The translations under genes and the position numbers were made by a program. This document shows positions 61,068-62,548 of a stretch of 64,000 nucleotides of DNA, piece after piece (the stretch's first letter is position 1; each line of letters begins with the position of its first letter). Below the pieces are notes generated by a model that was not told the DNA's origin, did not search any database, and saw nothing but the letters and a program-made list of their open reading frames with translations. The stretch is from an uncultured Chloroflexia bacterium. Its GTDB lineage: Bacteria; Chloroflexota; Dehalococcoidia; Dehalococcoidales; RBG-16-60-22. The DNA lies in contig CAWCLJ010000004.1 of the NCBI GenBank assembly GCA_963796365.1, forward strand, positions 1,162,519 to 1,226,518. The letters run 5' to 3'.

Positions 61068-62548
61068 TAATGTTTCTCCACCCGTTGTTAATCGCTTCCG
61101 CCAGCTTCCGCTTCAGCACCTCGTTGACCAGCTGCGGATTAGCGCGGCCCTTGCTTGCTTTCATCACCTGGCCGACCAGGAACTTGAGGGCCGTTTCTTT
61201 CCCGGCTTTATAGTCGGCCACAGGCTGCACATTAGATTTTATCACTTCAGCCACTATTTTCTCAAGCTCCCCGGTATCGCTTATCTGGCTGAGGCCGCGT
61301 TTTTTGATGATTTCATCGGCGCTTTGGCCGGTAATGAACATCTCTTCGAGCACGGATTTGGCGGTAGCGGTATTGATCGTGCCGTGCGAGCTCTGATATC
61401 AAGCCCGATGAGCGTTTCCGGGCTGACTTTTTTCTCTGAAACTCTCGATATCGATGTTGTTGGCATTGATGATGCGGCTTACTTCACCGAGAAGCCAGTT
61501 AGCTACCTCTTTAGGCGGTAACATCTTTGCTGACCTTTACGCCTTCTTCGAAATAGTCGGCCATCGCTTTGGAGCCGGTGAGCAAGTCTGGCATCGTAAA
61601 GCGGCAGGCCGTACTCAGCCATAAATCTATCGCGCCTGGCTTCCGGCAGCTCCGGCAGTTTTGCCCTGACTGCTTCCACCCACTCCCGGCTGATGATGAG
61701 CGGCGGCAGGTCCGGCTCCGGGAAGTAGCGGTAGTCGTGGGCGTATTCCTTGCTGCGCTGGGAGACGGTCTTGCCTTCTTCCTCCACCCAGCCCCGCGTT
61801 TCCTGGACGAGCTTTTTCCCCTCGTCCGCGGCTTTGCGCTGGCGCTTCGCTTCATATTCCATCGCCCGGTAGACCGCTTTGAAGCTGTTCATGTTCTTGA
61901 CTTCCACCTTGGGCCGAGCTCTTTGCTGCCTTCCGGCCGGATGCTGATATTGGCATCGCAGCGGAAGCTGCCTTCTTCCATGTTGCCGGTAGAAACGCCC
62001 AGGTACTGGAGGATGCTGCGCAGCTTGATCAGGTACTGGCGCGCTTCTTCCGGCGAGCGCAGGTCCGGCTCGCCGACAATTTCCATCAGCGGGCACGCCG
62101 GAGCGGTTGACATCCACCAGGCTGTAGTCTTCGCCGCCGGCGTGGCGGTGCACCAGCTTGGCGACATCTTCCTCGAGGTGGACGCGGGTGATGCCGATTT
62201 TCTTCGTCTGCGCCGTCGACCTCGATGTTGAGCCAGCCCTTCGTTGCCGATGGGCGCGTCGTACTGGGAAATCTGGTAGCCCTTCATCAGGTCGGGGTAG
62301 GGATAGTTCTTGCGGTCGAACTTGGTGAATTCGGAGATGGTGCAGTTCAGGGCCAGGGCGGTCATCATGGTAAATTCAATGGCCTGCTGGTTGATGACGG
62401 GCAGGACGCCGGGCATGCCCAGGCAGACCGGGCAGACATGGGTATTGGGCGGCGCACTGGCATAGTCCGCGCTGCAGCCGCAGTACATCTTGCTTTTGGT
62501 TAGCAACTGGGCGTGGACTTCCAGCCCGATGATAGTTTCGTAGTCCAT
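61068..62548 (-). pseudogene. gatB: Asp/Glu-tRNA amidotransferase subunit B, interrupted by ~9 frameshifts
   Basis: The GatB sequence can be followed continuously ('MDYETIIGLEVHAQL..' to '..GRANPQLVNEVLKRKL') only by changing frame near 62238, 62211, 62090, 61912, 61584, 61513, 61430, 61405 and 61384. The 3' end is undefined. Confidence 0.85.

Follow-up and report, generated by a model that had tools for sequence, protein, structure and literature searches.

The protein-coding gene gatB is broken into fragments in different reading frames in the 64-kb stretch of Dehalococcoidales DNA analyzed here (64,000 nucleotides, referred to throughout as the window). From the consensus sequence and its comparison with relatives, we conclude that the single-base insertions and deletions (indels) responsible are very probably an assembly or consensus artefact of the deposited sequence, and not a feature of the organism's DNA. 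The underlying gatB and its neighbor secG are most likely intact, ordinary genes under selection. The artefact is favored because the damage consists of indels only, shows no substitutional decay, occupies a 1.4-kb patch that also clips secG, and lies in a metagenome-assembled genome (MAG) delivered as one long contig. Within this explanation, a mixed template, in which reads of two slightly different strains would have been merged, stands at a little better than an even chance of being the cause.

Frameshifts in gatB

The source sequence is a 1,996,400-bp single-contig MAG of a Dehalococcoidales bacterium, public at NCBI and the European Nucleotide Archive (ENA). A 219-amino-acid (aa) GatB fragment is present among the public gene calls, as are CysS, SecG, IspD, ClpC and heliorhodopsin; the presence of this exact fragment and of window proteins in the public record places the indels in the deposited assembly. 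As written, the gatB coding region occupies positions 61093–62548 on the minus strand, from an ATG at 62548–62546 to a last homologous codon, GCG, at 61095–61093. The longest open reading frames (ORF) in the region span 61889–62548 (219 aa), 61503–62153 (216 aa) and 60817–61353 (178 aa). No single uninterrupted gatB reading frame is found: three-frame translation can follow the gene from ATG to GCG only through repeated frame changes, at eight places in the gene body, and the stop codon is lost as well. Nine single-base events underlie these eight places: a base is added in eight of the events, and in the ninth a C is lost.

Frame changes were located by three-frame translation, by MAFFT nucleotide alignment against nine orthologous coding sequences (CDS) and by a frameshift-aware protein-to-DNA dynamic programme run against four orthologues. 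Each base was then dropped in turn to delimit the interval within which a single correction restores the orthologous peptide. The MAFFT alignment places bases found only in the window near 62242, 62210, 62094, 61589, 61520 and 61435, with two more near 61395, and a window-only gap at 61913. The dynamic programme yields +1 shifts at 62242–62245, 62208–62211, 62096, 61589, 61513–61516 and 61431–61434, one missing base at 61908–61917 and a +2 shift at 61393–61399. An earlier note on this DNA, made from the sequence alone, had traced nine frame changes by hand over about 850 bp, eight of them as an extra nucleotide and one as a C missing from a C-run. The three methods agree with these nine positions to within approximately 10 nt, the tally of eight insertions and one deletion is confirmed, and the damage to the gene body extends from 62242 to 61394 (848 bp). 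The nucleotide-by-nucleotide comparison with orthologues that the note had called for was carried out on the nine CDS: none carries any of the extra bases, and all have the additional C at 61913.

All the events lie in genes on the minus strand and are given here as read on that strand. The first (62236–62243) is one extra base in AAC G AAG GGC, which reads N-K-G-W without the G and N-E-G-W without the A. The second (62201–62212) is one extra base in GGC G C AG ACG, giving D-G-E-T without the C or D-G-Q-T without the G, and the third (62090–62094) is one extra base in GTG CCCG CTG, where the options CCG and CCC are synonymous. The fourth (61911–61913) is the missing C, with CCC in the window and CCCC in the orthologues (GGC-CCAAGG as opposed to GGCCCCAAGG). 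One extra base follows at 61583–61591 (GCC AGAC TTG; GAC for D or AAC for N), another at 61516–61521 (ACCG in GTT ACCG CCT; ACG for T or CCG for P) and a third at 61428–61436, at or within an A6 run (AGA G AAAAAA GTC; GAA for E or AAA for K). The eighth place (61393–61402) holds two extra bases 7 nt apart, CTT G ATATC A GAGC, which the dynamic programme treats as one +2 shift; with both removed, the window reads CTTATATCGAGCTCGCACGGC and the relative L001 CTTATATTGAGTTCGCACGGT.

Beyond the gene body, a base is probably missing at the gatB stop codon (61088–61093). A TAA at 61090–61088 lies one base out of frame; GatB in the orthologues ends in KLAE followed by A, T or V and then a stop, and the window reads GCG ATT AAC. 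It is because of this missing base that the last gatB fragment runs across secG as far as 60817, which explains the earlier observation that no in-frame stop occurs before secG.

Condition of the corrected gene

Nine edits restore a full-length GatB of 483 aa without a stop codon. The corrected protein matches the family model NF004012 end to end (residues 1–482 to model positions 2–480 of 481) with 686.5 bits against a cutoff of 338, and TIGR00133 with 601.7 bits against a cutoff of 314.8. The best uncorrected ORF scores 270.8 bits against NF004012, and none of the ORFs passes a cutoff before correction. Once corrected, the protein has both Pfam domains in full, GatB_N (PF02934) over positions 2–277 of 277 and GatB_Yqey (PF02637) over 1–148 of 148, so that the gene is indeed recognizable from end to end across its frames, as had been claimed. 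The top database matches are Dehalococcoidales GatB proteins at 86% identity, and searching the protein collection with the full-length sequence, the C-terminal segment and the N-terminal half returned no GatB more than 88% identical.

In the relatives first retrieved for comparison, 80 from the genome collection and the 120 best protein matches, gatB is intact throughout. Measured against 200 homologues, the corrected GatB has no mismatch at the 130 columns conserved to at least 98%, nor at the 209 conserved to at least 90%. It contains two residues absent from all homologues, one of which results from the choice of junction in the correction, and intact homologues have a median of one to two. 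Of the 10 ingroup sequences, it lies closest on average to the 29 outgroup GatB sequences. With no change at conserved columns, one truly unique residue and the shortest outgroup distance, the gene gives no sign of relaxed selection, in line with the remark in the earlier note that the substitutional decay to be expected of so broken a pseudogene is lacking.

Extent of the damaged patch

The defect is regional and not specific to gatB, since it also clips secG and the gatB stop codon. The earlier note had described it as a gatB defect; its nine events are real features of the sequence, and its confinement to that gene does not hold. As written, secG occupies 60870–61067 on the minus strand and encodes 65 aa, truncated by a missing base at approximately 60876/60877. 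SecG in relatives is 72–74 aa long, all 11 orthologues examined have the extra base at this point, and the conserved SecG C-terminus SIVSLR is found in the adjacent frame past approximately 60877. Once corrected, the secG frame overruns its usual end by about nine codons, and the third frame contains a TAA-TAG-TAA triplet, so a further small error is possible around 60850–60870.

The damaged patch thus runs from approximately 60877 to 62242 (1.37 kb) and holds 11 single-base events, eight insertions and three deletions. The insertions lie mostly outside homopolymers, and at least one of the three deletions, that in the C-run at 61911–61913, sits in a short run of the same base. The patch ends before DUF5679 on one side, and on the other it spares the first 306 nt of gatB.

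Elsewhere, the window looks free of such damage. A tblastn comparison of 3,745 ORFs from the loci of the 80 relatives found pairs of adjacent-frame matches nowhere in the window but in gatB, and its one other flag, near 60690, is an antisense ORF lying across an intergenic indel. Approximately 50 larger ORFs match Pfam families from end to end or otherwise show no interruption, among them ClpC, KatG and the OYE-type reductase, which had been singled out before as clean, as well as RadA, CysS, IspD and IspF. Some 60 other ORFs of the window look intact, including a short and complete 5′-3′ exonuclease. The low-coding gaps of the window contain no shredded genes, only small complete genes or nothing recognizable.

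Related loci and assemblies

Relatives share the gene order tRNA-Ala, gatB, secG, DUF5679, ubiA, cysS, ispF, ispD and radA, and the gatB of the window is therefore the native copy and not a stray duplicate. No second gatB copy was found within the 64-kb window.

Read-derived and related assemblies provide some context. An exact look-up of IspF led to a Logan contig of run ERR10755942 that matches window positions 56972–58005 at 100% identity, and the same strain is therefore present in that run. Exact look-ups of SecG, CysS, DUF5679 and the 219-aa fragment gave no retrievable contig. Three related ENA contigs with Flye-style names (L082, L083 and L084) also carry a frameshifted gatB, with mostly +1 insertions, and illustrate the kind of error that occurs in such assemblies; they were found through a search aimed at short GatB proteins, which constitutes a selection effect. 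L083 and L084 are low-coverage sister contigs in which breaks are scattered over several genes. In L082 (ENA ERZ25039515 contig_25101, 1.56 Mb), the C-terminal third of gatB has several indels at 7001–7500, with a GC content of 0.48 compared to approximately 0.60 on either side; the genes beside it are intact, making this another local bad patch in a good-looking assembly. The idea that gatB is a recurrent error hot spot, as these three contigs might suggest, was rejected in view of the selection bias, the many long contigs with an intact gatB and the differing positions of the breaks.

Position of the extra bases

The eight extra bases adjoin alignment columns of unusually high variability. 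Taking the larger flanking-column entropy at each of them gives a mean of 1.56, a value reached in none of 120 simulations that inserted eight bases at random into the corrected gene and repeated the alignment in the same manner (simulated statistic 0.89 ± 0.22, maximum 1.51). Paired with its neighbor, each extra base yields two possible alleles, and either one makes a sensible codon: K/E, E/Q, P/P, D/N, T/P, E/K, I/V and S/S. Five of the eight candidate allele pairs are A/G. Two specific causes were considered and rejected. A methylation-motif error, based on CAGAG or CAGAC at four sites, conflicts with the wide occurrence of such 5-mers in the window without damage elsewhere, and a collapse with specific co-assembled relatives conflicts with their gatB being only 70–80% nucleotide-identical.

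The tRNA-Ala fragment and the AT-rich junction

Upstream of gatB, the 5′ 42 nt of a tRNA-Ala(UGC) lie at 62659–62700 on the plus strand, reaching as far as the anticodon stem on its 3′ side. The remaining 3′ third is absent, and the 42 nt are identical (42/42) to the tRNA of the related locus L004. ARAGORN and Rfam called no tRNA at 62659–62700. A divergent tRNA-Ala stands upstream of gatB in seven of the 12 closest relatives checked, with anticodon UGC in five and CGC in two. The 460 nt separating the patch from the junction are clean, including the tRNA match. In the window, the place of the 3′ part is taken by AT-rich DNA (approximately 35% GC) that runs from 62701 to the window end at 64000, with the C-terminus of a membrane protein entering it from that end on the minus strand. 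Over these more than 1.3 kb, C strongly outweighs G and there is little sign of coding. Unusually for a tRNA-targeted island, the element leaves the tRNA unrestored.

BLAST of the AT-rich tail against phages and plasmids and a junction scan of JGI metagenomes returned no match. Further AT-rich islands with mobile-element genes occur elsewhere in the window, and for this reason the DNA at 62701–64000 is probably the edge of a genomic island; the junction itself could be a real island edge or a misjoin. L004 (MFD04408.bin.1.100, ~9600–9810) carries a tRNA-like half-copy upstream of its intact tRNA-Ala, with the first ~28 nt in common, which suggests that the tRNA-Ala locus is a recurrent site of recombination or integration in this group.

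Other features of the window

Several features outside the gatB region deserve mention. Within window positions 4993–8092, a 657-aa AAA_15/AAA_21 ATPase gene (4993–6966, 31–37% GC) abuts a Mutator/IS256-family transposase gene (6848–8092, GC approximately 59%); the ATPase gene has the appearance of a defence-type gene carried by a foreign AT-rich island. The 2.3 kb at 14545–16820 (approximately 40–45% GC) have no convincing ORF or Pfam match, with a small HTH_17 (excisionase-like) gene at their end (16593–16820), and may be the remnant of a mobile element. In the minus-strand interval 16880–18319, a 367-aa ORF without a Pfam match ends at a TGA (17218–17216) directly followed by 111 codons in the same frame with good coding statistics; the TGA could represent read-through, selenocysteine, a nonsense change or the boundary of two genes.

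A full-length heliorhodopsin gene (25477–26244, minus strand; Pfam PF18761, 315 bits) lies near genes for ferritin, KatG and a MarR regulator. The 109-aa ORF at 44067–44396, downstream of a PMT-like glycosyltransferase, is 73–76% identical in DNA to the C-terminal part of that gene (43426–43674) and looks like a partial tandem duplicate or gene remnant. A 5S rRNA gene stands alone at 49388–49505 on the minus strand with no 16S or 23S gene nearby, flanked by repeat elements and by an AT-rich segment (50–51 kb) in which a 306-aa ORF has no counterpart in Pfam. Many genes are followed by intergenic repeats of two families (43837–43922, 49667–49752, 57089–57142 and 18696–18753; also 4467–4554, 11945–12033, 33759–33808 and 50108–50157). 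One is a GC-rich hairpin-type element with the core CGGGGGTGTCCCCCGG, and the other consists of runs of heptamers resembling GGGAATAG or GTGAATAG.

Discussion

Indels without accompanying substitutions in an otherwise conserved gene are the pattern expected of consensus error, and they are what the patch contains, in an assembly whose origin appears to be long-read sequencing. Indels in long-read consensus sequences are known to disrupt gene calls (PMC9262707), and close strains can be merged by Flye into a single consensus (PMC8302730). In the process that we envisage, the reads of two slightly different co-occurring strains would have piled up together in the patch, the strains differing in a recombined segment of about 1 kb or in whether their cells carry the AT-rich island interrupting tRNA-Ala. 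The polisher would then have retained both alleles of several single-nucleotide polymorphisms side by side, creating a +1 shift at each polymorphic site, and the consensus in the approximately 1.37-kb patch would have gained eight spurious bases and lost three. A mixed template is proposed because the extra bases adjoin variable columns and resolve as allele pairs. Of the three options put forward in the earlier note, a local assembly or polishing defect is thus favored as very probable; a recently inactivated duplicate is disfavored by the native syntenic position and the lack of a second copy in the window; and something more unusual has found no positive support.

Several considerations weigh against this interpretation. 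Its support is indirect, coming from the consensus sequence and from comparison, and the sole independent read-derived contig, from ERR10755942, covers 56972–58005 and not the patch. The long-read technology of the source is deduced only from the long single contig and the related records, and the co-occurrence of two strains is likewise something we infer. Extra bases would also favor variable sites if the frameshifts were real and only unconstrained residues could tolerate them. In addition, residual Nanopore consensus errors are usually homopolymer deletions, and insertions outside homopolymers are atypical for simple low coverage.

The closest competing account retains the artefact and dispenses with the strain mixture, attributing it more simply to a local drop in coverage, where the noise of one or two reads bridging the island junction would have passed into the consensus. 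We regard it as possible but unlikely. The proximity of the patch to the tRNA/AT-rich junction (460 nt), the deletion in the short C-run, typical of read noise, and the scattered breaks in several genes of the low-coverage contigs L083 and L084 all suit a coverage trough, but random noise should ignore evolutionary variability, and the insertions cluster at variable columns. Noise should also have introduced some substitutions, of which none is detectable, and the stretch between patch and junction, tRNA fragment included, is clean. Another alternative takes the indels as real: the native gatB, together with secG, would have become a pseudogene very recently, with GlnRS/AsnRS taking over its function, or else a second gatB and secG at another place in the 2-Mb genome, perhaps on the neighboring island. 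The broken state of the deposited sequence, the fragment in the public gene calls, the disturbance of the locus by the foreign AT-rich DNA that cuts the neighboring tRNA-Ala, and the three of 11 events that could be ordinary slippage in short runs are compatible with such a loss. Yet 11 indels without a detectable excess of substitutions would need a nearly indel-only mutation process; at an indel-to-substitution ratio of 1:10, tens of changes would be predicted at the 209 conserved columns, and none is seen. Bacterial indel spectra favor deletions and runs, and Mira, Ochman and Moran reportedly described the deletion bias of bacterial pseudogenes in 2001. The window departs from neutral decay in each of these respects, with no accumulation of substitutions or longer branch, fewer deletions than insertions (3 versus 8) and most insertions outside runs; the 8:3 insertion bias and the non-homopolymer contexts run contrary to those spectra. 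Three adjacent essential functions would, moreover, have been lost at their native locus, with no second gatB within the window, and we consider pseudogenisation improbable.

It is likewise conceivable that the frameshifts are real and that the gene is expressed by recoding, through serial programmed +1 frameshifting or transcriptional slippage. The perfect conservation of the encoded sequence in every segment would fit this idea, as would the location of the extra bases at evolutionarily unconstrained residues, where a recoding site would be tolerated. The sites, however, share no common motif, with no zero-frame stop or known slow codon at the shift and nothing resembling the conserved shift-prone context of programmed +1 sites. 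The old frame stays open after the shifts, for about 115 codons after the first. Most sites lack a homopolymer altogether, and the longest, A6, is too short for productive transcriptional slippage, below the A/T run of about nine or more that slippage would call for. The shifts occur in none of the nine orthologues aligned base by base, and the 80 relatives and 120 best matches are uninterrupted. One event in the gene body is a −1 amid eight +1 shifts, and the roughly 60 other ORFs of the window need no recoding. We therefore give this explanation hardly any credence. Taken more broadly, to include a very recent indel-only mutational burst besides multi-site recoding, the proposition that all 11 indels are truly in the DNA of cells still making GatB and SecG is scarcely less improbable. 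Were the indels real, an essential bacterial gene would be massively frameshifted, which would be striking, but the evidence leaves little room for it.

If the favored consensus artefact is the correct explanation, the frameshifts have no biological importance, only practical consequences. The public record probably under-reports two essential genes, and a metabolic reconstruction based on it would wrongly score the tRNA-dependent transamidation route and SecG as lacking. A tight cluster of +1 shifts at variable sites, each readable as two alleles, could serve as a cheap, read-free flag for mixed-strain polishing errors in long-read MAGs.

Comparison with known systems

Neutral-decay pseudogenes, such as those of Mycobacterium leprae and of recently host-restricted symbionts, resemble the gatB of the window in having multiple frameshifts and no intact frame. 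Unlike them, the window gene has no excess of substitutions and no nonsense substitutions, is biased towards insertions and occupies the native locus of an essential gene. The +1 frameshifting of prfB/RF2 and slippage rescue in endosymbionts share with it an extra genomic base relative to the coding frame, but they depend on a single conserved site that orthologues have in common, set in a defined slippery or pausing context or in a long A/T run, whereas the window gatB has nine unrelated sites without such context, none of them shared with relatives. Mitochondrial multi-frameshift genes, exemplified by Perkinsus cox1 with its roughly ten shifts at fixed codons, also have a conserved product despite numerous +1 shifts within a single gene; those shifts recur in one codon context and are genome-wide, whereas in the window the contexts differ and are limited to one patch of one bacterial chromosome.

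Residual indel errors that fragment gene calls in long-read (Nanopore or PacBio) assemblies and MAGs, the problem measured by the IDEEL test (PMC9262707, PMC8302730), offer a further comparison. In both cases the damage is indel-only and splits a conserved gene into adjacent-frame fragments; the source is here a 2-Mb single-contig MAG, and the same kind of breaks appear in sister ENA contigs. The errors in the window differ in being packed into one 1.37-kb patch, in being mostly insertions outside homopolymers and in falling at variable sites, a pattern that suggests a mixed-template pile-up rather than classic homopolymer miscalls.

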